Source of the DNA: Oscillospiraceae bacterium
GTDB taxonomy: Bacteria > Bacillota > Clostridia > Oscillospirales > Oscillospiraceae
Direction: 5' to 3'
DNA: 64,000 nucleotides
Assembly: GCA_034927185.1 (NCBI GenBank)
Contig: JAYFQM010000032.1
Span: forward strand, 15,436 to 79,435
The position numbers and the translations under genes were made by a program. Numbering within the stretch: the stretch's first letter is position 1; the number at the start of each line of letters is the position of its first letter. The notes under the pieces are model-generated. The model saw only the letters and a program-made list of their open reading frames with translations. It made no database searches and was not told the origin of the DNA. Positions 40,884-59,087 of this stretch are shown here, piece after piece.

Positions 40884-43004
40884 ATGAAATTAAAGAAAAA
40901 CAATACGAATATTGAAAGCTCTCTGAAAAGCATATTGGATTCCTTGGAATCAGATGTGGTTATTGTCCGGAACGAGAGCTGCGACGTTTTATTTATGAAT
41001 GAAGCCGCCCGCAAGCGGGTTGACGGAGAGGATCTTTCATCCGCGGGCTACAGAAAAGGATATACATATCTTTATCCGGGACTCTGTGAAAGCTGCCCAC
41101 ACAAGGCGGATTCCAAGGACGAGTATGCCGTATTTGATATTAAAGACAGAAATGGACGTATTTTTTCCGCAACCCGAAAAACTGTTGAATGGATTGACGG
41201 CAAATCCGCAACGGCTTTATTCCTGCGTGACGTCGATGACGAACGCAGTCTAAAAAACAGAATGTATAATCTTGCCTATTACGACCAGCTGACGGGAGTT
41301 CCAAACAGACAAAAGCTCAAGGAGGACTTTGAAGCCGCGCTGAAAGATAACAAGAACGATAGATATTGTGGAATCGTAGCCATTATTGATCTTGATAATT
41401 TTAAAGTTATCAACGATAATTACGGTCACGGTACGGGCGATGAAATGCTGCTGAGGATCACGGCATACCTTGAGGGCAACGACGATTTCAAGGGCCACTT
41501 ATACAGGCTGGGCGGAGACGAGTTTGTTTTGTTCTATAAAGAGAAGCTGTCGAAATTTGAGGACCAGACAGCCGTCAGGACGTATTTTAAAGAGCTTCTC
41601 CAGAAGTCTCTGCTTTCTTACACGATGCCGAATATAGAAGCCAAATGCACTCTCAGCATGGGCGTTGCGATATTTCCCCCGCATGGAGAAACCTTATCTG
41701 AGCTTTTGCGCAAAGCGGATATCGCGCTTTATAAAGCAAAGTCCGACGGACGTAACCGGGTAGTGCTTTTTGAAGATGAATATGATGCCGCAAGAAAATT
41801 CAAGGACATGTATATAAACATGCAGCCGATTTTGATAAAAAACGGCAACACCTATGGATACGAGCTTCTTGACAGCGATAACAGCGAAAAAGAGGACGAC
41901 CACACGTTTAGCCTTTCCCAGATAGACCGTACTCTGGACGCGCTTGAGCTCAATGATATTAAAGATGGTACAAAGTATTTTATATCCTTCACAAAACAGT
42001 TTTTCAACAAAACAGTTTTGAAAAACCTGCCCAAAAGCAAATTCGTGATTCAAATCAGCGCCTCCGACAGATATGCGGAAGAACATATGGCTTTATATAA
42101 ACAGCTAAAAGCAAACGGCTACCTGTTGTTGTTGTCGAATATTACCAGCGGCATTTTGGACAGAAACTTACTTGACCTTGCCGATTATTGCAAGTTTGCG
42201 CCCGGGGGGATGAGTGCGGGCGAACAGATTAATCTGATTGCTGCGAACCCGTCTAAAACCTTCATTGCGACGGACGTATCGACAACTGAGGAATTTGAAA
42301 TTGCCAAGCGAAGAGGATTCACTCTGTTTCAGGGATACTTCTTTAATCAGCAGACGGTGGTCAAGAAGGAAAAGGATATTGAACCCCTGAAGGCCAACTA
42401 TTTTCGGCTGCTGCAGCTGACAAGTACGGATAATTATGTGGATTTCAATGAGATAAGCGCTGTGATCTCTTCGGATGTGGCATTATCGTATAAATTGCTC
42501 CGCCTGCTGAACTCCGCCTCCGTTGGACTGCGCACCAGAGTAACCTCCATTCTTACCGCGCTGACCTTTTTGGGGGAAGAAAGCCTGAAACAGTGGATAT
42601 CGGTTCTGGCTCTGCGCGGCGTTTCCGATGAGAAGCCGCTGGAACTTGTGAGAATGTCCCTGATAAGGGCGCGATTCGGTGAAAGCTTATCGTGCTGCTT
42701 TAAGCCTCCGATGGATACAAAGAACGTATTTATGGTGGGGCTATTGTCTCTTCTGCATATTGCACTTGATAAAACGAAGGAAGAGATGCTGGATGAAATT
42801 CCCGTTGCGGACAAGATCCGGCAGTCCCTTCTGGGAGACGACGGCCCATACTCAGAACTATTAAAGTTTTTTGAATCCTACGAACATGCTGATTGGAGTG
42901 AAATTTCGCGTTTTTCCGAAAAACATGAAATTGGCTGCTATGCGATCAACAATGCATATGTAAGTGCTGTTAAATGGTGCAACGATTTGATTAACGCATA
43001 TTGA
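40884..43004 (+). CDS. sensor (PAS-like) - GGDEF - degenerate EAL-like - HDOD protein
   Basis: YDQLTGVPNR...NDNYGHGTGDEML...LGGDEFVLF is an intact GGDEF domain. The EAL-like region YGYELLDS...FISFT...VIQIS...LLLSNI...CKF...IATDVST...FQGYFF has lost most metal and catalytic residues. HDOD: DVALSYKLLRLLNSASVGLRTRVTSILTALTFLGEESLKQW. The ATG at 40884 is preferred over the GTG at 40875. Confidence 0.88.
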   Translation: MKLKKNNTNIESSLKSILDSLESDVVIVRNESCDVLFMNEAARKRVDGEDLSSAGYRKGYTYLYPGLCESCPHKADSKDEYAVFDIKDRNGRIFSATRKTVEWIDGKSATALFLRDVDDERSLKNRMYNLAYYDQLTGVPNRQKLKEDFEAALKDNKNDRYCGIVAIIDLDNFKVINDNYGHGTGDEMLLRITAYLEGNDDFKGHLYRLGGDEFVLFYKEKLSKFEDQTAVRTYFKELLQKSLLSYTMPNIEAKCTLSMGVAIFPPHGETLSELLRKADIALYKAKSDGRNRVVLFEDEYDAARKFKDMYINMQPILIKNGNTYGYELLDSDNSEKEDDHTFSLSQIDRTLDALELNDIKDGTKYFISFTKQFFNKTVLKNLPKSKFVIQISASDRYAEEHMALYKQLKANGYLLLLSNITSGILDRNLLDLADYCKFAPGGMSAGEQINLIAANPSKTFIATDVSTTEEFEIAKRRGFTLFQGYFFNQQTVVKKEKDIEPLKANYFRLLQLTSTDNYVDFNEISAVISSDVALSYKLLRLLNSASVGLRTRVTSILTALTFLGEESLKQWISVLALRGVSDEKPLELVRMSLIRARFGESLSCCFKPPMDTKNVFMVGLLSLLHIALDKTKEEMLDEIPVADKIRQSLLGDDGPYSELLKFFESYEHADWSEISRFSEKHEIGCYAINNAYVSAVKWCNDLINAY

Positions 43005-43028
43005 CAGAAAACGGAGAGGATAAACAGC

Positions 43029-44045
43029 ATGGATGTGTATATTGCCAGGCAGCCGATTTTTGACAGGCAGATGAGAATATACGGCTATGAACTTCTTTAC
43101 AGGAAAAGCGATGAGAACGCTTTCACCGAAATGGATGACGATATTGCAACCAGTGAGCTGATCTACAATTCTTTCCTTGTTGCCGGACTCAACAAGCTGA
43201 CGGACGGGACGAAAGCTTTTATTAATTTTTCAAAGGATCTGATTGACAGCAAGTTGCCATACCTTCTGCCTAAGGACAGCGTTGTGTTCGAAATCCTTGA
43301 GCGTAAGGAGGCGACTGAGGCGACAATAGAGGCATGCGACAGGCTGAAAGCACTGGGCTATGAGCTTGCGCTCGATGATTTTGTAATAGATGACAGCTTT
43401 CTGCCCCTGTTTGATAAGGTTGATATAATAAAGGTGGAATATCCGTCGGTCAGCCTCGAAGACCAGAGCCGATTAGTAAAGGAAAACAGGAACGGAACCC
43501 GGTTTCTTGCAGAAAAAATCGAGACCAGGGAGGACTTTCAGCACGCCTTCGATATTGGATACGACTTTTTTCAGGGATACTTCTTCAGTAAGCCAACAAT
43601 TATTAACTCGAAGGAAATCGCGTCGATCAGCGCAAATATTATTGCAATTGCAGATGAACTGAAAAACCCAGAACCGAGCTATGACGTGATATCGGAGATA
43701 ATCATGAGCGATCTGGGATTGACATATAAGCTGCTGAGCCTTGCTAATTCAGTCTATATGGGGGCAAGGGGGAAAATCAGGTCCGTTAAGCAGGCGCTGT
43801 CTTATATCGGCATTAACGAGATGAACCAATGGATCAACATTATGATGGTTAGGGACCTGCAGAATGTCGAAAACGCCGAGCTTGTAAAACTGTCTCTCAT
43901 ACGCGGTAAATTTTTGGAGCTGCTCGCAAAAGAGCTGAAATACACTGATAAAGCTTCCGAATGCTTCCTGACGGGTATGTTCTCGTTCATAGATGTTTTA
44001 ATGAATAAACCGATGGGTGAGGTTCTTGAGGGACTTCCGCTTTAA
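43029..44045 (+). CDS. EAL-HDOD protein (PdeH/YuxH-like c-di-GMP phosphodiesterase), truncated by an in-frame TAA
   Basis: YGYELLYR, FINFS, FEILER, ALDDFV, IKVE, LAEKIET and FQGYFFSKP form a near-complete EAL catalytic set. The HDOD begins at DLGLTYKLLSLANSVY. The ORF ends inside the HDOD domain. Confidence 0.85.
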   Translation: MDVYIARQPIFDRQMRIYGYELLYRKSDENAFTEMDDDIATSELIYNSFLVAGLNKLTDGTKAFINFSKDLIDSKLPYLLPKDSVVFEILERKEATEATIEACDRLKALGYELALDDFVIDDSFLPLFDKVDIIKVEYPSVSLEDQSRLVKENRNGTRFLAEKIETREDFQHAFDIGYDFFQGYFFSKPTIINSKEIASISANIIAIADELKNPEPSYDVISEIIMSDLGLTYKLLSLANSVYMGARGKIRSVKQALSYIGINEMNQWINIMMVRDLQNVENAELVKLSLIRGKFLELLAKELKYTDKASECFLTGMFSFIDVLMNKPMGEVLEGLPL

Positions 44046-44234
44046 AAAGACGTTAAGCAGGCTCTTCTGGGTGGAAAAAACATTTTCAGGCAGCTTCTTG
44101 ATTTTCTGATCGACTATGAATCGGCCGACTGGAGTAAAATTGAGGACAGGTATCCGTTTAACGTGATTAGGACGAGCAGATTTATGAAAATATATCTTGA
44201 GTCTCTTGAGTGGGCAAAGAAGCTGAATTTTTAG
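44046..44234 (+). other. same-frame continuation of the preceding EAL-HDOD gene (detached C-terminal 62 codons)
   Basis: Directly after TAA 44043-44045 the same frame reads KDVKQALLGGKNIFRQLLDFLIDYESADWSKIEDRYPFNVIRTSRFMKIYLESLEWAKKLNF*. This aligns with the C-termini of both paralogs (DKIRQSLLGDDGPYSELLKFFESYEHADWSEI... and DELKGGLIGREGVCDDLLRLCTLYEKGRWGKV...). Confidence 0.75.
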
Positions 44235-44264: not shown

Positions 44265-44310
44265 CCCTATATAAACGCCGCATGCTCAGCATGCGGCGTT
44301 TATATAGGGT
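44265..44310. terminator. bidirectional terminator (about 21-bp perfect palindrome)
   Basis: ACCCTATATAAACGCCGCATGC-TCAG-CATGCGGCGTTTATATAGGGT. Lies between convergent genes. Confidence 0.75.
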
Positions 44311-46719: not shown

Positions 46720-47859
46720 CTAGCTAACGGACGCTTTTGAAGTAAGGGAGGGGACAGGCAGATCGAAGGCACCATCATCAGAAGCGCCCAAAACAGAAGC
46801 TATGGTGACGAAAAGATACCTTACGTCCTCAAGCAGATCAAGCTCATCGCCCTTTTCGCCAAGCTCGGAGTCCTCAAGAAGCCTCACACACGGACGGAAA
46901 ATGTTTTCTGCATGATTTTTCACAACGACGGCGGTCGAGCCGTCGGACAATTTGACCAAGGTTCCCGATGGGTAAATGCTTATCAGATGAGAAAATACCT
47001 TGACAAGCTCGCAGTCAAACTGAGAGTCCGATCCGGCAATTATGTATTCAATTGCGTCTTTGGGATGCCAGGCCTTACGGTAGCTCCTCTGGCTTGTCAG
47101 CGCGTCATAAACATCGGCCACAGCTAGAATACGTCCGAAAAGAGGAATCTGGCTGCCGCTGTATCCGAACGGGTAGCCGCTACCGTCTATCTTTTCGTGG
47201 TGGCTTTGTATTCCAGGCAAAACCTCGGTGGAAAGGTTATAGCACTTGCGCATACGCTCGACGCCCTTTAATGGGTGGGACTTTATGACATCGAATTCCA
47301 AAGGAGTTACGGCGCCGTTTTTGTTTATTATCTCAATGGGAATATCAATTTTTCCGATATCGTGCATAAGCGCGCAAAGAGCAATATCTTCAAGTCTGTT
47401 CCGTGTGATGCCGAGTTCTCCCGCCAACATGGTGCTGAGAATGCCGACATTTAAGCTGTGCGAATACGTATAATTGTCGTAACTCTTGATTTCAATTATA
47501 TCCAGGAGATGCTCTTCGCTGTTCAAAATGTTATCAACGATTTTTCCGGCGATTTTTTTTGTTGATACAACGGATGTACTTGAAATATAAGGCTGGCTGA
47601 AATAGTTGTTATACAGGGTATGAAACTCGTTTGTCATCTCCTGCTTAGTCTGCTGGCTTATCATACTCCTTGGCTCAATGCCTTCAGTTCCCTCCATCTC
47701 AACGTAAATACCGTCGATATCACAGGCGGCGAGCCGTCTTATATAGCGGTCGGTGAGAACTTCTCCATCCTGAAGAAGGGGGAACAAGCCGCTTGGCGCA
47801 GAAACGCTTTTTGCTAGAGTCATTCCCGGCCGTACCCTGGAAAGCGGGATATAAATCAC
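46720..47859 (-). CDS. HD-GYP domain c-di-GMP phosphodiesterase (N-terminal DUF3391-like domain)
   Basis: HDIGKIDIP and HHEKIDGSGYPFG motifs. GTG start. Confidence 0.88.
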   Translation of the reverse strand: MIYIPLSRVRPGMTLAKSVSAPSGLFPLLQDGEVLTDRYIRRLAACDIDGIYVEMEGTEGIEPRSMISQQTKQEMTNEFHTLYNNYFSQPYISSTSVVSTKKIAGKIVDNILNSEEHLLDIIEIKSYDNYTYSHSLNVGILSTMLAGELGITRNRLEDIALCALMHDIGKIDIPIEIINKNGAVTPLEFDVIKSHPLKGVERMRKCYNLSTEVLPGIQSHHEKIDGSGYPFGYSGSQIPLFGRILAVADVYDALTSQRSYRKAWHPKDAIEYIIAGSDSQFDCELVKVFSHLISIYPSGTLVKLSDGSTAVVVKNHAENIFRPCVRLLEDSELGEKGDELDLLEDVRYLFVTIASVLGASDDGAFDLPVPSLTSKASVS

Positions 47860-52858: not shown

Positions 52859-54280
52859 TTGCCGGATTTTTTGAAGGTCACGAAACCGTTGGTAACGCAA
52901 AACCAGAACATCCAGCCAAAGCCTGGTGTCGAAACAAACGGATCGTTTAACATTCAAAGCTCGACGAAAGTCGTTCAGACCCATAACCAAAGCGAATTGC
53001 TCAAGCAGAATAACGGGCTGAAGGACGGTAGCGACGTACCAACTCTCCTGCTGAGCCTCCTCAAGGACCCCACAGTTACCGTATCATATTTAAAAAACAT
53101 CTTCATGCTTGAAGAATTATATAAGCTTCTTCCCGCTAACAACAGGACGGTTACGAAAGATATAGAGGACGTTCTTGAAGCGTTGCTCATAAAACCCGAG
53201 CAGTTGACGGAAGAGATGCGCAGACAGCTGCGCGGCTCAACCGCTTTTTCTGGCGAGCTCTTTGATTTCCTTAGAGAAATAAGCTCGCAGAATAAAGAAA
53301 AGCCCGATGTTCAGGTCGCGATAGCCAGGCTGCTGCGTTCGATTAACAGCATGGGGAACCAGCGTGAAATTCTTGATTCGATAGCTAATAATCTTACATA
53401 CTTGCAGCAGCAGCTGTCCGCCGGCAAAGCTCTATCGGCAAAGCTGAACAATTTGATCGAAGGATTTCTAGCGCAGGATGCGGCGCAGAATTTTTCAGCT
53501 CTTAAATCGGACGCACTCGCCTTGATAAAGAATATTGAGGGCAGTATACTGTTCTCCGCTTCTCTTTCAAAAACAGTATCAATCCTCATATACAATCTTT
53601 CGCGATACAGCGCAAACACCGATTATGCCGCCGAATCGGCATACCGTCTGTCTCAATATCTTACATCGCCCCAGCGTTCGGAGCTCAAAGCGCTGATGCA
53701 GGCTTATATAGATGCGAAAGCCGGGGATGACGGTCCTGCAAAAGCCGGTGCTTCGAATGAGAACGAGTCCCGTGTGATGTCATCGATAATAAGACTCATT
53801 TCTCAGCAGAGGGAAACAGGGACGAACCCTGCCGATATGTTGAAACTGGAAAAAATGCTCTACAGCCTGCTATCATCGCCCTGCAACTTTACTCCCCTGC
53901 TTCATTTCATTCTTCCGCTGCAGTATAATGAAATGAAAGCGTTCGCAGAGCTGTGGATTAATCCGGAAAGCGATGAGAAAGACATGCCGGACAGTGCTTC
54001 CGGCGGAATACATCTTCTCATGGTCATAGATGTCGACGGCGTCGGGCGCTTTGAGGCTGAGTTTTCCGTATACGACTCGACGATCGACTTTTCCCTCTAT
54101 TGCCCGAAAGGCTGCGAACAGGGCTATGAGGAACTCATGAAATCGTTCCCGAAGCTGCTGCACGGAACGCCTTACCATTCCGGCAAGACAGAGGTGTTGA
54201 CCTTTGAAAGCACACGTTCGCTTATGGATGTTTTTAAATCCTTGCCCTACAGGAGGGTCGGAGTAGATGTCAAAATTTGA
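52859..54280 (+). CDS. hypothetical protein, possibly FliK-like hook-length control domain protein (YlqG-like position)
   Basis: 473 aa, Gln/Ser/Leu-rich. The C-terminal block IHLLMVIDVDGVGRFEAEFSVYDSTIDFSLY resembles the Flg_hook fold pattern. Overlaps the downstream FlhB-C-like gene by 14 nt. TTG start after AAGGGGGAAAG. Confidence 0.4.
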   Translation: MPDFLKVTKPLVTQNQNIQPKPGVETNGSFNIQSSTKVVQTHNQSELLKQNNGLKDGSDVPTLLLSLLKDPTVTVSYLKNIFMLEELYKLLPANNRTVTKDIEDVLEALLIKPEQLTEEMRRQLRGSTAFSGELFDFLREISSQNKEKPDVQVAIARLLRSINSMGNQREILDSIANNLTYLQQQLSAGKALSAKLNNLIEGFLAQDAAQNFSALKSDALALIKNIEGSILFSASLSKTVSILIYNLSRYSANTDYAAESAYRLSQYLTSPQRSELKALMQAYIDAKAGDDGPAKAGASNENESRVMSSIIRLISQQRETGTNPADMLKLEKMLYSLLSSPCNFTPLLHFILPLQYNEMKAFAELWINPESDEKDMPDSASGGIHLLMVIDVDGVGRFEAEFSVYDSTIDFSLYCPKGCEQGYEELMKSFPKLLHGTPYHSGKTEVLTFESTRSLMDVFKSLPYRRVGVDVKI

Positions 54281-54585: not shown

Positions 54586-55377
54586 ATGAGGGTGAACGAT
54601 CATCTGCAAAAACTCAGGGAACGTGAAATTGAGACAAAGAAGCAAAAGCAGAAGAATATCCGAATGGGCCGTTTGCTGCTCGCCGCCACTCTGCTCGGCC
54701 TTTCAATATTCAGTATTCTGACGATAACCTCTACCATCGAACCCAAAAACTCCGCGCAGGCGAAGGAACACGTTGCGGATGCCACCGCGGGTGACACCGA
54801 GGATGTGGATAAGGATTCATGGGAGCTTGTACTCGTCAACACCAGGAATATGATTCCGGAGGATTTCACTGTGGACCTCAAGCCGTTTGAAAGCACGAGG
54901 GTTGATTACAGGATCGCAGGACATCTGCAGGAAATGATTGACGCGGCGAAGAAGGACGGAATAAGTATAAGCGTTTGTTCAGGGTTCAGAACCGTGTCTG
55001 AACAGGATGCGCTTTATAACGCAAAGTGTGAAAAATATGAAGCGGGCGGCTATAGCGAAGAAGCCAGCAGGATTCTGGCGGGTCAATACATACAGCCTGG
55101 AGGCGCGAGCGAACACCATACCGGACTTGCCGTCGACCTTCTGACCGACGAGACTTCGGAGCTGACTGAGAGCTTTGCGGAAACGCCGGCCTATACATGG
55201 CTGAAGGACAATGCCGCGAAATATGGTTTTATTGAGCGGTATCCTTCGGATAAAAGCGAAATTACAGGGATTTCTTGGGAACCGTGGCATTACCGTTATG
55301 TCGGAAAAAGCAACGCGGAGACCATTACAGAGGACGGGCTCTGTCTTGAGGAATACCTGCTTAGGGAGGATGGCTGA
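54586..55377 (+). CDS. D-alanyl-D-alanine carboxypeptidase family (VanY/M15B) protein
   Basis: N-terminal TM anchor. SGFRTVSEQDALY, SEHHTGLAVDL and WHYRYVG zinc-peptidase motifs. Confidence 0.85.
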   Translation: MRVNDHLQKLREREIETKKQKQKNIRMGRLLLAATLLGLSIFSILTITSTIEPKNSAQAKEHVADATAGDTEDVDKDSWELVLVNTRNMIPEDFTVDLKPFESTRVDYRIAGHLQEMIDAAKKDGISISVCSGFRTVSEQDALYNAKCEKYEAGGYSEEASRILAGQYIQPGGASEHHTGLAVDLLTDETSELTESFAETPAYTWLKDNAAKYGFIERYPSDKSEITGISWEPWHYRYVGKSNAETITEDGLCLEEYLLREDG

Positions 55378-55462
55378 GGCTGAGCAAAAGCCACCTGTCC
55401 GTTGTTAGTGGATACTTTTTAGTAAATACATGTTTTATTTATATAACTAAGGGAGATTTAGC

Positions 55463-56695
55463 ATGGAAACCCATATAGTAAGGCAACCCATTCTTGACCG
55501 CAAGCAAAAGCTCATAGCGTATGAACTTGTGTATTATCAGGATGCCAGCACTCTGTACAACAAGCGGGATACACATGCCGCCAACATAATTGTCACTTTT
55601 TTTGCTGGGGTTGACGCCGGCGGCTTTTTTGAAGGAAAAGATTGTTTTCTGACCTTCACGCCGAATCTTCTGATGAAAAACGTCCCTCAGATTTTCGATG
55701 TGAAAAGGCTTGTGATTCAGATCGAAGAGAACATTCTCATTAATCCGGACGCAAAAGCAATACTCAGCAGATACAAAAGAGACGGTTACCGTATCGCGGT
55801 TCTTGGATTCGACTTTAACAAGCGCTATTTGGATCTTCTCCCGGATATTGATATTATCAAGGTGGATTTTTCCGACCCCCAAAAAGAAAATATCGGGGTT
55901 TTATGCAAGCTGGCCAGGAACTTCGGAAAAAAACTCGCTGCTTACGGGATCAATTCTTCCGAATCAAAGGAGCTTGCACTGTCATACGGCTGTGATTTTC
56001 TTCAGGGTGAAAGCGTTTCCGAAATGGTTACCACCAAGGTCCATAAAATGAACTATCTCCAGTCGAACTTCTTCAGGCTTATGGGGGCGATAACAAAAGA
56101 AGCTCCGGAGTTCGATGAAATTGCGAAAATAATTTCCATGGACGTTTCCCTGTCGTTCTCTCTGCTGAAAATGGTCAACTCCGCTTATTTTGCGCTGTCC
56201 AATAAAATCAGCAGCGTAAAGCAGGCATTGACGATTCTCGGATTGGGACAGCTCAAGCAGTGGATCTACCTGCTTAGCTTTTCGGATGACGGCGGAATAA
56301 CCGATCAGCTTATAAAGCAGTCGTTTCTCCGTGCTGTTTTTTGCCAGGAGATATCCCAGTATATCGACGGCTTCCCCATTTCAAAATCGGAATCTTATTT
56401 GCTTGGAATGTTCTCAACACTCGGCATTCTGCTCGAGGTTCCGATTGCGGATGCGGTCGAAGAGCTCCCTCTTTCAGACGAACTGAAAGGCGGTCTTATC
56501 GGCAGGGAAGGAGTGTGCGATGACCTGCTTAGGCTCTGTACCTTATATGAAAAAGGGAGATGGGGTAAAGTGGCATCAATAATAGAAAAACTGAGGCTGC
56601 CGGAAGATGTTGTTAAAGTAAAATACCTGGAAGCCATCGAATATGTAAACAATATCTGGTCGGAGCTGTCAATCCCGTCTGCCGGCAGAGAATGA
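55463..56695 (+). CDS. EAL-like - HDOD protein (PdeH/YuxH-sized, 410 aa; catalytic residues partly lost)
   Basis: IVRQPILDRKQKLIAYELVYY, LTFT (Asn lost), IQIEEN, AVLGFDF (DD lost), IKVD, AAYGINS (ExxE lost), LQGES. HDOD: DVSLSFSLLKMVNSAYFALSNKISSVKQALTILGLGQLKQW. Confidence 0.85.
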   Translation: METHIVRQPILDRKQKLIAYELVYYQDASTLYNKRDTHAANIIVTFFAGVDAGGFFEGKDCFLTFTPNLLMKNVPQIFDVKRLVIQIEENILINPDAKAILSRYKRDGYRIAVLGFDFNKRYLDLLPDIDIIKVDFSDPQKENIGVLCKLARNFGKKLAAYGINSSESKELALSYGCDFLQGESVSEMVTTKVHKMNYLQSNFFRLMGAITKEAPEFDEIAKIISMDVSLSFSLLKMVNSAYFALSNKISSVKQALTILGLGQLKQWIYLLSFSDDGGITDQLIKQSFLRAVFCQEISQYIDGFPISKSESYLLGMFSTLGILLEVPIADAVEELPLSDELKGGLIGREGVCDDLLRLCTLYEKGRWGKVASIIEKLRLPEDVVKVKYLEAIEYVNNIWSELSIPSAGRE

Positions 56696-56747
56696 ATTTA
56701 TAGGCACAGTTTTTGAACTGTAGAATTGCGCTTGGCGGTGAGAGTAT

Positions 56748-57440
56748 TTGAAAATGGATCTTAATAGTGTTCTTGACTGTATGTGTGAAATCAAGACGAT
56801 GGACAACGAGTTTCTAGCCATTGGCAGAATCAGTGCCGTCATGAACGACGAAAAATCAATCGAAATTGTCTCCTGCGACGGAGGCAGTCTTCCGAGTATG
56901 CGGTATGAGACAAAAGTTAAAATCAGCATAGTCGGCAGCAAAAGCGGATTTCTGGGTCTGGAAGGCTATGTTTATATTGCGCATAGCAGCTTCTGGAGAT
57001 TATATGATGTAAGCAGTCTTGGCGAAAACGAGAGACGCGGTTACTTCAGGATTAAGAACAGCTCACACGCGGAGGTTGAAGAGATTGCAGAGCAGGGACA
57101 GATAAAAAACGACGCAAAGGAAGCGGCGGACAGCGCGAATGTGAAGTATCCCTGTATAGTAACAAGCGTGAGTATTTCGGGATTGCTTCTTGCGATTGAT
57201 GATGAAAGCTGCGATTACCGCATTGGCGCCACGCTTCAGGTTAACTCTTTTACCATAGGAGAAAGCAGCCAGGAATTCACCTTAAGATGCGTTGTAAAAA
57301 GAATTGACCATCACGAAAGGCTCGGATTACTTTTAGGATGCGAGTTTACCGGCCTTAGCGACAGAGAAATACAAAGTCTCTGTCAGGCAATTTTTACACA
57401 GCAGCGGCTTGAAATACATAGAAAAAAAGGGCTTCATTAG
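56748..57440 (+). CDS. PilZ domain protein (YcgR/MotI-DgrA-like architecture)
   Basis: RRGYFR (RxxxR) followed about 40 aa later by SVSISGLLL, which is (D/N)xSxxG with Ser in the first position. About 100-aa N-terminal beta-rich domain. The ATG at 56754 is an alternative start. Confidence 0.75.
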   Translation: MKMDLNSVLDCMCEIKTMDNEFLAIGRISAVMNDEKSIEIVSCDGGSLPSMRYETKVKISIVGSKSGFLGLEGYVYIAHSSFWRLYDVSSLGENERRGYFRIKNSSHAEVEEIAEQGQIKNDAKEAADSANVKYPCIVTSVSISGLLLAIDDESCDYRIGATLQVNSFTIGESSQEFTLRCVVKRIDHHERLGLLLGCEFTGLSDREIQSLCQAIFTQQRLEIHRKKGLH

Positions 57441-57460
57441 CCAACGGTGACAGTCACATC

Positions 57461-57496
57461 AAAAAACTGCTTAGTTCACTTGCTAAGCAGTTTTTC
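57461..57496. terminator. bidirectional intrinsic terminator
   Basis: AAAAAACTGCTTAG-TTCACTTG-CTAAGCAGTTTTTC. Lies between convergent genes. Confidence 0.75.
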
Positions 57497-57511
57497 GGCA
57501 GTAAAATCCAA

Positions 57512-57964
57512 TTAATGGTGCGGGTGCGAACGGATTTGTATCGCAGCCTTGATAAGCGCATCCATTATGGTTTTATTCGAAATCTCCATTTCGACCTGTT
57601 CGATTTTTGACGATTGTACGACCGCATAGCGCGGAGGAAGAATATTAAGGGCATAAGCGCAAATATCACATCGACAACGGTCGCAACTGCATACATTGAA
57701 CCTCTGGATGACCGCGTCGACGTTCTTCAAAACAAGGCTCTCCATAACATTTATCGTTGAAATCGTTTCTGGTTCATTATAGCTTGGACTACGGGCGAAA
57801 ATTTTATCCCGTAAGGCAGAGAGTGAATCAGAGCTTGCTTCGTCCTCGGCTTCCTCAACCGCTTTGTCCGAAACAAGGTCGGAGCTGAAAGGATTGCTGT
57901 TCAGAGCGGGCATGATTTTCGAAAACATCAAATCCTTATCAAGCTCTTTTTTTGATTTTGCCAT
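57512..57964 (-). CDS. ComFB-domain protein with ~70-aa N-terminal extension
   Basis: The C-terminal part NVMESLVLKNVDAVIQRFNVCSCDRCRCDICAYALNILPPRY matches the ComFB (late competence development protein) Cys-cluster pattern. The N-terminus MAKSKKELDKD...EEAEDEASSDS looks disordered. Starts 3 nt after the ParA-like stop. Confidence 0.7.
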   Translation of the reverse strand: MAKSKKELDKDLMFSKIMPALNSNPFSSDLVSDKAVEEAEDEASSDSLSALRDKIFARSPSYNEPETISTINVMESLVLKNVDAVIQRFNVCSCDRCRCDICAYALNILPPRYAVVQSSKIEQVEMEISNKTIMDALIKAAIQIRSHPHH

Positions 57965-57967
57965 TTT

Positions 57968-58735
57968 CTAAATTAAACCCCTTTCAAAGAGCTCTTTGAC
58001 CAAAGCCATATAGTCCTTAACGGCGTTATTATTCGGAGCGTAATCTATTATATCCTCCTGCAGAGTTGTCATGGCCTTACTGATGACATTGCTGTGTCTG
58101 ATAACTGTGTCCAGCAGCGGTATGTTCAGGTGGGTTGCCAGCATCTGAGCGGTTTCCTTTGTAGTGCGGCTGAGTGCCTCGCGCGGGTAGTAGCGCAGCA
58201 AAAACATTCCGGCTATGGTAAGGTCGGGATTAAAAGCCCTTTTAATGCGGAATATTGTTTCATGTACCTGAATAATTCCATGCAGGCTGTACCCGTCCGA
58301 CAGGCCGGGAATAAGAACGATATCCGAGGCTATTATAACATTTGAGGAGAGAAGACCCAACTCCGGAGGGGAATCTATCAGAATATAGTCATACATCGGA
58401 AGAACCGTTTTGAGGCTTTCCTTCAGCATATGCTCGCTTCCTGGCCCTGTGAACTCGCGTTCAACATTGCCAAGCAGCGCGTCGGCGGGAATGATGTCGA
58501 CAACATTTGAATTCTGTATCGCATAGCGCGTTTTAACTTTGTGCTTGAGAACGTCGTATATTGTTGGGTGCTCTCTCGTGTCGGCGTTCATACTAAACGA
58601 AAGATAGCCCTGAGGGTCGAAGTCAACACAAAGAACACTGTAGCCCAAATGTTTCAGACAGGCGGCAATAGCGTTTGTTGACGCGGTTTTTCCTACACCG
58701 CCCTTTTGATTGATTAAAGAAATTACCTTTGCCAT
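57968..58735 (-). CDS. ParA/MinD/Soj-family deviant Walker-A ATPase (orphan)
   Basis: MAKVISLINQKGGVGKTAST deviant Walker A with the signature Lys. VDFDPQG, and LIDSPP Walker B-like. About 255 aa. No ParB or parS is visible nearby. Confidence 0.88.
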   Translation of the reverse strand: MAKVISLINQKGGVGKTASTNAIAACLKHLGYSVLCVDFDPQGYLSFSMNADTREHPTIYDVLKHKVKTRYAIQNSNVVDIIPADALLGNVEREFTGPGSEHMLKESLKTVLPMYDYILIDSPPELGLLSSNVIIASDIVLIPGLSDGYSLHGIIQVHETIFRIKRAFNPDLTIAGMFLLRYYPREALSRTTKETAQMLATHLNIPLLDTVIRHSNVISKAMTTLQEDIIDYAPNNNAVKDYMALVKELFERGLI

Positions 58736-59087
58736 TGCTATCATCACTCCTCGTTTTTTGATATTATCATAATTTATTCTATAATAAAATAGCCTATTGC
58801 ATTTTTTGAGCGGAATGACACGGTAAATTTCGTTTTTTCCTATTGACTTCCGCTATCCGGCGGCAGTCGTAAAAAGCCGGGCATCAGGTGCCGGCGGGTT
58901 ATACTTAACAAAATATTAAAAATATACAAAAATCATAGCATGTTATGGTTATCTGCTTTAATTTTTCCATTTTAGATGTATAAATAGATTGAGGCAGGAA
59001 TATTAAAGCCTGATTTTTGAAGAAATGCTGTTTTAAGGACACGTGAATATTTTGAGTATTCATTAATAATATTGGAGGCGCTGATAC

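Follow-up and report, generated by a model that had tools for sequence, protein, structure and literature searches.

Which of the three EAL-HDOD proteins encoded at this locus could still degrade cyclic di-GMP (c-di-GMP), and what would the others be kept for? The locus lies next to motility genes, in a stretch of 64,000 nucleotides from an uncultured gut or environmental Oscillospiraceae bacterium (contig JAYFQM010000032.1 of assembly GCA_034927185.1), hereafter called the window. We name the three genes by type: C is the GGDEF fusion starting at 40884, A the gene at 43029 and B the gene at 55463. The original prediction, made by eye, had described a graded loss of catalytic residues among three paralogues, leaving one probable phosphodiesterase and two pseudo-enzymes. 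According to our analysis, the locus probably contains one member each of three ancient EAL-HDOD groups, in which B and C are catalytically dead, C acts as a cyclase and the enzyme-form A has been cut by a stop codon.

Three copies of one EAL-HDOD module

The features on which the argument depends are listed below in window coordinates.

40884-43004, + strand: C-type gene, with a PAS-like Cys-rich N-terminus, GGDEF, a dead EAL-like module and HDOD (Pfam, conservation, AlphaFold2 model)
41805-42359, + strand: dead EAL-like module of the C type, residues 311-495 numbered from 40875 (alignment, fold)
42360-43001, + strand: HDOD of the C-type protein (Pfam HDOD, 55.4 bits)
43005-43028, + strand: 24-nt spacer from C to A, with a ribosome-binding site GGAGAGG at 43013-43019 and without a terminator
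43029-44045, + strand: A-type gene as it stands, 338 residues, with the full EAL domain (residues 1-195) and the beginning of the HDOD, ending at a TAA
44043-44045, + strand: this in-frame TAA, codon 339 of the A-type gene
44046-44234, + strand: 62 further in-frame codons of the A type, to a TAG, corresponding to the HDOD C-terminus of the family
44265-44309, unstranded: hairpin terminator with a 20-bp stem, common to the end of the A-type gene and to a convergent methyl-accepting chemotaxis protein (MCP) gene
55463-56695, + strand: B-type gene, 410 residues, with a dead EAL fold and HDOD

A module of about 400 residues is found at three loci of the window (40884-43004, 43029-44234 and 55463-56695) and is collinear throughout. 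In A and B, an N-terminal EAL domain is directly followed by a C-terminal HDOD, and C ends in this module, which takes up its last 400 residues. Pairwise BLASTP comparisons over about 400 residues gave identities of 32%, 28% and 26% with E-values of 2e-57, 2e-54 and 3e-39, the first of these E-values being that of the A and C modules, collinear over 400 residues. Because of this full-length collinearity and these E-values, the three modules can be regarded as true paralogues of a single EAL-HDOD unit. With Pfam, the EAL profile (PF00563, gathering cut-off 31.3 bits) scored 54.7 bits for A and 35.4 bits for B, both above the cut-off, and 27.4 bits for C, below it. The HDOD profile (PF08668, cut-off 22.9 bits) passed in all three (69.7 and 76.7 bits besides the C-type match), which agrees with the statement that each protein ends in an HDOD domain. 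These matches span only profile positions 3 to 134 or so out of 196 in the three proteins, the remainder being all-helical in the models. An invariant Ser occupies in all three the place of the His in the canonical GxLHxxG motif, and a di-metal site of the kind seen in 3HC1 is therefore unlikely in these HDODs. No specific NCBIfam family matched any of the three EAL-HDOD modules.

When a profile of the A family was aligned with the EAL structures 6ifq (a stand-alone EAL from Vibrio), BlrP1 (3gfx) and Lmo0131 (4q6j), all the EAL motifs, namely E-L-x-R, N, E-x-x-E, DDF, K-x-E/D, E-x-x-E and QGY, fell in register. A profile built from B sequences only, aligned with YahA (4kie), gave the same register and placed Q86/E89 on E-x-x-E, L114/G115 on DD and Y161/N164 on E-G-V-E. 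The motif strings quoted in the original prediction are all present, and formal alignment to the Pfam EAL and HDOD profiles and to solved EAL structures bears out the register in which they had been read. The two independent profile-to-structure alignments leave no room for a shift of register by which B or C would regain catalytic residues.

Only the A type possesses the complete metal-binding and catalytic set. It displays E21, R25, N66, E88, E91, D116, D117, K135, E162, E165 and Q182, each of them 99-100% conserved among 119 homologues, and the nearly full motif set first attributed to this gene thus proves to be complete. The Asn, the first Glu of ExxE, the two Asp of DD and both Glu of EGVE are replaced in B and C. 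What is left in B is E21, E89, K133, D135 and Q181, the latter followed by Gly; the residues that it had been said to keep are indeed there, but the ExxE motif, counted as lost, is half retained, with E89 kept and Q86 at its first position. C conserves E330, K440 and Q486-G-Y and has lost the Arg, the Asn, both Glu of ExxE, DD and both Glu of EGVE. It therefore keeps the first Glu and the QGY as proposed, but also the catalytic-site Lys, which had been overlooked. Judged from these residues, B and C are devoid of metal ligands, and hydrolysis by the conventional two-metal mechanism of EAL domains is impossible for them. Their fold is nevertheless recognizable: the best 50 listed Foldseek matches of the B-type AlphaFold model (predicted local distance difference test, pLDDT, 75.7) are all EAL structures, and the C-type model (pLDDT 76) matches the PAS-GGDEF-EAL protein PA0861 along about 560 aligned columns (E = 8e-23), with PA0575, MorA, DosP and LapD as further matches.

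The question then arises of when the catalytic residues were lost. A tree built jointly from 359 sequences separates the types into three clades on long stems, with supports of 0.95, 1.0 and 1.0; this tree was midpoint-rooted, without a canonical-EAL outgroup, and does not fix the order of the two duplications. Intact orthologues number more than 115 for each type; they reach down to about 50% identity and come from uncultured Oscillospiraceae, Christensenellaceae and other Clostridia. The residues that replaced the catalytic ones are themselves conserved: E88 has become Gln in 119 of 119 B and in 108 of 117 C proteins, N66 has become Thr in 114 and E162 Tyr in 101 of the 119 B proteins, and E21, K135, Q182 and G183 are retained across all three families. 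A, B and C thus appear from their sequences as ancient, separately monophyletic groups of orthologues. Because the replacement residues are conserved and the clades are separate, B and C are best described as old pseudo-enzyme families under purifying selection and not as products of decay; their origin as local decay products was ruled out by the family conservation and the tree. The paralogy claimed in the original prediction is confirmed, but its graded loss is not a local gradient, and the phylogeny that it called for resolves three ancient clades.

One could still imagine that B and C are decaying pseudogenes, or that all three proteins are active and their motifs were mis-aligned, and the low Pfam EAL scores of B and C would go in this direction. 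Against this stand the numerous intact orthologues of each type with their conserved replacement residues, the agreement of the two profile alignments and the EAL folds returned by the structural searches. We consider the chance of either as negligible.

The interrupted enzyme form

After 338 residues, the A-type frame meets the TAA at 44043-44045, and the same frame then stays open for 62 codons more, to a TAG at 44234. The end at 44234 that had been assigned to this gene is only reached through the in-frame TAA; the open reading frame ends at 44045. Over their whole length, the 62 codons beyond the stop can be aligned with the C-terminal part of the HDOD in the family. In the column of the stop, 71 of 121 aligned relatives have a Ser, encoded in the six nearest ones by TCA (three times), TCT, TCC and TCG. 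Since nearest relatives have TCA at this site, a single C-to-A change (TCA to TAA) would suffice to make the stop. The 120 listed A-type homologues are all 384-487 residues long, and only the window copy has 338. Divergence in the tail after the stop is no greater than in the upstream part of the HDOD (ratios 0.84 and 0.86). Because the tail is no more diverged and its codons are still in frame and family-like, the stop can be taken as recent, or else as an error. The region removed corresponds to the last four helices of the HDOD, which are confidently modelled in the paralogue, and the truncated product would keep its EAL domain entire, next to a damaged HDOD.

We surveyed the three types in 19 genomes of the genus. 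Most of these genomes gave matches to B and C, and an A type was found in only three, namely the window genome, G018 and G006, the remaining 16 having no copy. The copy of G018 (68% identity) is open to the end of its contig. That of G006 (locus L003, contig C252, 895-2100; 49% identity) carries an independent TAA at the Gln of QGY, codon 182, with the rest of the catalytic set retained, and its terminal branch in the tree is very long (0.64). In G010, a convergent MCP gene comes straight after the C-type gene, without A between them. Since A is absent from most of these genomes and independently stopped in G006, the enzyme form seems, on this comparison, dispensable in the lineage, where it is repeatedly lost or hit.

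According to a first alternative, the TAA would come from an error of assembly or consensus, or from an allele carried by a minority of the sampled population, and a full-length A of 401 residues and the cyclase would then be a working, co-transcribed make/break pair. Several observations speak for it. The 62 downstream codons keep the frame exactly and resemble the family as well as the upstream HDOD does; the single strong hairpin is placed behind the extended frame, with nothing comparable after the TAA; and one relative (L023) has the same C-then-A tandem, 89 nt apart, with an intact A of 403 residues. The source genome is also a draft in 176 contigs, 92% complete. On the other hand, substitution errors that create stops are rare in consensus assemblies of short reads, the independent TAA of G006 and the 16 genomes without a copy make loss a trend of the genus, and in the neighbouring C-type gene another conserved site, Cys59, has become Tyr by a single-base change. 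We searched metagenome contigs with an exact pattern in which the stop codon was left free and found no other assembly spanning the site; the nearest relative of the protein in the protein database has 68% identity, and none is closer. Altogether, we regard such an error or allele as rather unlikely, while a real chance has to be left to it.

A second alternative is a programmed read-through or recoding of the TAA, which would produce a short and a long isoform of A. That the frame is open and conserved past the stop, and that a second member of the genus also has an in-frame TAA, could be quoted in its favor. TAA is however an ordinary terminator here, ending 12 of the 46 genes of the window, and the two in-frame TAA of the genus lie at unrelated positions, codon 339 in one case and codon 182, in QGY, in the other; on these two grounds stop-codon recoding was rejected. 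The plain Ser codons of the six close relatives also argue against it, as does the fact that bacteria are not known to have a read-through signal for TAA-A. Such a mechanism is highly improbable.

We thus favor a true interruption of A. With its complete two-metal site, a full-length A would hydrolyse c-di-GMP to pGpG, and the TCA-to-TAA change, by ending the protein at residue 338, would leave a truncated and probably impaired phosphodiesterase, or nothing useful. The probable phosphodiesterase of the original prediction does have a complete catalytic set, but with a TAA in its HDOD and in a genus where the gene is mostly missing or broken.

The cyclase and the modules without metal ligands

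The C-type gene most likely starts at ATG 40884, behind a GAAGGG ribosome-binding site, as in the public gene call, which gives 706 residues; its frame is open from GTG 40875, and the 709 residues first reported were counted from there. Its GGDEF domain (PF00990) scores 130.8 bits, and the signatures DxDxFKxxNDxxGHxxGD, GGDEF and RxADxALYxAKxxGRN, conserved in 116 relatives, are present in every residue, so that the intact GGDEF claimed for the fusion is confirmed. The RxxD inhibitory site, which is frequent in such domains without defining them, was not found in this GGDEF, the stretch reading D-F-K-G and being variable in the family. From the intact GGDEF and a PAS-like sensor, we infer that C is a diguanylate cyclase. 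The N-terminal domain is PAS-like in the C-type model, as part of the match with PA0861, and Pfam gave nothing significant on the N-terminal 132 residues. Four Cys of this region (C36, C59, C71 and C74, arranged as C-x22-C-x11-C-x2-C) are conserved in at least 95% of the family and constitute a candidate metal or redox site. Codon 59 (41049-41051, numbered from 40875) reads TAC in the window and encodes Tyr, whereas Cys is found in 111 of 116 relatives; besides the TAA, a second conserved position, less than 3 kb away from it, has therefore been altered by a single base. In the C family, the HDOD half is the best conserved, with a mean pairwise identity of 0.67 compared with 0.50 for the EAL half.

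C and A are separated by 24 nt without a terminator and are therefore probably co-transcribed in the window. A adjoins C in 5 of the 6 relatives examined, in the same-strand order of the window in L023 and in convergent orientation in L009/L010, L022, L024 and G018; in L007/L008, A is located away from C. The genes flanking the pair differ in each relative. As adjacency recurs with differing flanks, it seems to have been maintained, which favors a functional link between the cyclase and its enzyme-type paralogue and not a fixed operon. The spacing and the neighbourhood underlying the idea of a coupled tandem unit were thus correct, but relatives show other arrangements besides the same-strand tandem, and in most of them the pair is convergent.

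The original prediction considered the two pseudo-enzymes as c-di-GMP-binding or scaffolding proteins. We compared, within each family, the conservation of twelve former active-site columns with that of the other EAL columns. The pocket is far above the rest of the domain in A (0.99 versus 0.70, P < 5e-5), shows a modest excess in B (0.78 versus 0.65, P about 0.04) and none in C (0.63 versus 0.61, P = 0.40). In known EAL complexes, the arginine of EALxR touches the ligand. Its column is variable in the dead families, with Q/Y/F/H/R in B and R/S/N/G in C, and the window proteins have Y25 (B type) and S334 (C type) at this place. Because of the pocket conservation and of this variable Arg, a remodelled ligand site looks plausible for B and is unsupported for C by the alignments. 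The loss of the metal ligands in both proteins stands, but not c-di-GMP binding as a common property.

These observations bear directly on a third alternative, namely that the dead EAL modules of B and C are high-affinity c-di-GMP receptors of the LapD/FimX kind, which would bind the ligand through the old active site. The QPI strand is kept in all three types, with R7, Q8 and P9 nearly invariant in the B family, and so are the Glu of EAL, the Lys and the Q-G of QGY; the pocket columns of B exceed the rest of the module, and B is always paired with a gene for a PilZ c-di-GMP receptor. This has to be set against the variable ligand-contacting Arg in B and C, and against a C pocket at background conservation in the least conserved half of the module. 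We hold this alternative as doubtful.

A gene for such a PilZ protein directly follows the B-type gene in 6 of 6 relative loci.

56748-57440, + strand: PilZ-domain gene 3' of the B-type gene (Pfam PilZ)

Its product has the RxxxR motif, and the second motif reads SxSxxG. The order VanY, B type, PilZ, followed on the opposite strand by ComFB and a ParA-like ATPase, is identical in the six loci (L015-L020), the syntenic block extending in the window from 54586 to 58747. The stable gene unit is that of B with PilZ. The ParA-like protein is 83-94% identical across the six relative loci, far above the conservation of its neighbours. An open reading frame of 473 residues (52859-54280, + strand) lies between the che operon and the VanY gene, with weak Pfam matches that are all below cut-off.

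According to the reading that we prefer, in which B and C are old pseudo-enzymes, B would have lost its metal ligands long ago and fixed Gln for E88, Thr for N66 and Tyr and Asn for the Glu of EGVE. It would most likely be a non-catalytic signalling or adaptor protein in the control of motility by c-di-GMP, paired with PilZ beside the flagellar genes, and may perhaps still bind a nucleotide in a remodelled pocket. The dead EAL-HDOD tail of C would be a regulatory or docking module for the cyclase, with no enzyme and no conserved ligand pocket. A more tentative hypothesis, which we put forward as a conjecture with limited odds, is that B behaves as a pseudo-phosphodiesterase partnering PilZ: its dead EAL, with pocket residues Q86, T64, Y161 and N164 conserved across more than 100 orthologues, or its His-less HDOD, would bind c-di-GMP or pGpG and pass the signal on to a PilZ brake of the flagellar motor, or gate this brake, and the recurrent nonsense alleles of A in the genus would reflect selection for raised c-di-GMP. 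If this is true, a B-PilZ pair of adaptor and receptor would replace the enzyme-receptor pair PdeH/MotI of Bacillus.

Other c-di-GMP proteins of this genome have to be considered as well, one of them in the window.

46720-47859, - strand: HD_5/HD-GYP-type protein, with HDIGK and HHExxDGxGYP intact

This gene is 2.5 kb away, just downstream of cheA-cheW-cheR-cheB, and its product is likely, from its motifs, to be a working phosphodiesterase of c-di-GMP (or of cyclic GMP-AMP, cGAMP). Two canonical EAL domains are encoded on other contigs (C162:2239-2934, 223 bits; C81:6432-7115, 164 bits). The two proteins that contain them, with 890 and 594 residues, show partial GGDEF matches as well. Together with the HD-GYP protein, this pair provides the other candidate c-di-GMP degraders of the genome, which encodes about ten GGDEF proteins.

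Known relatives and meaning

The active phosphodiesterases ZpdA, CdgJ and VC1851 from Vibrio cholerae and PdeH from Bacillus are built in the same way, with the EAL domain N-terminal and the HDOD C-terminal (PMC12607878). Like the A type, PdeH (YuxH, B. subtilis), CdgJ (VC0137), ZpdA (VC0515) and VC1851 have about 400 residues and are linked to motility (PMC12607878, PMC11357230), and the A type shares the full catalytic set of these enzymes. In contrast, the A copy of the window is cut in its HDOD, B and C are without metal ligands, and C adds a PAS-like domain and a GGDEF in front. In a census of 2010, HDOD was a partner in 128 EAL-only and 28 "GGDEF-only" proteins (PMC2952852); some of these 28 are probably C-type proteins with an EAL that Pfam does not detect. 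Since a recurrent disruption of pdeH/yuxH during the adaptation of B. subtilis has been documented (PMC10438812), an adaptive loss of the A type would be a reasonable reading.

For the HDOD halves, a precedent for an adaptor role comes from SadB of Pseudomonas, a YbaK-HDOD protein described as a non-enzymatic adaptor that needs no ligand in its HDOD pocket (PMC12075610), an earlier study having reported that it binds c-di-GMP (PMC6543031). Its N-terminal domain is YbaK-like, whereas an EAL is found here, and the likeness is claimed for the HDOD only. The C type can be compared with LapD (P. fluorescens, V. cholerae) and FimX (P. aeruginosa), in which a dead EAL also lies within a GGDEF-EAL protein, and the C-type model matches the GGDEF-EAL structures of LapD. 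LapD and FimX act as sensors with degenerate GGDEF and EAL domains, the EAL keeping the ligand-contacting Arg, whereas the C type combines an intact GGDEF with an EAL in which this Arg varies, and ends in an HDOD. PA0861 (RbdA), PA0575 and MorA, which rank highest among the structures matched by the C-type model, display the same order of PAS, GGDEF and EAL; they have an active EAL and no HDOD, so that the C type, with its active-looking GGDEF and dead EAL, is reversed.

Several points weigh against our interpretation of the locus. The TAA could be a consensus error in the fragmented assembly. Even if it is genuine, the EAL domain is wholly upstream of it, and the truncated protein might be an active phosphodiesterase. 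The adaptor role of B and C has been deduced from conservation and gene neighbourhood, and PdeH was placed in clade A from the statement on its architecture in the cited paper, and not by alignment.

EAL-HDOD proteins are widespread, and the few members studied are of the enzyme type. The current picture of c-di-GMP signalling is not overturned by this locus, whose proteins are of known kinds and bring modest additions: the dead forms are old, well conserved and found with constant neighbours, and the single copy of the enzyme type is interrupted. A practical consequence concerns annotation, for the label "EAL and HDOD domain-containing protein" is given to enzymes and non-enzymes alike, and the one apparent enzyme of this locus is cut by a stop. 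Clostridia of the Oscillospiraceae type have at least three old and stable versions of the EAL-HDOD protein, namely an enzyme, a dead form associated with PilZ and a dead tail of a cyclase. These three versions offer natural contrasts for the roles of the HDOD and of an EAL pocket without metal.

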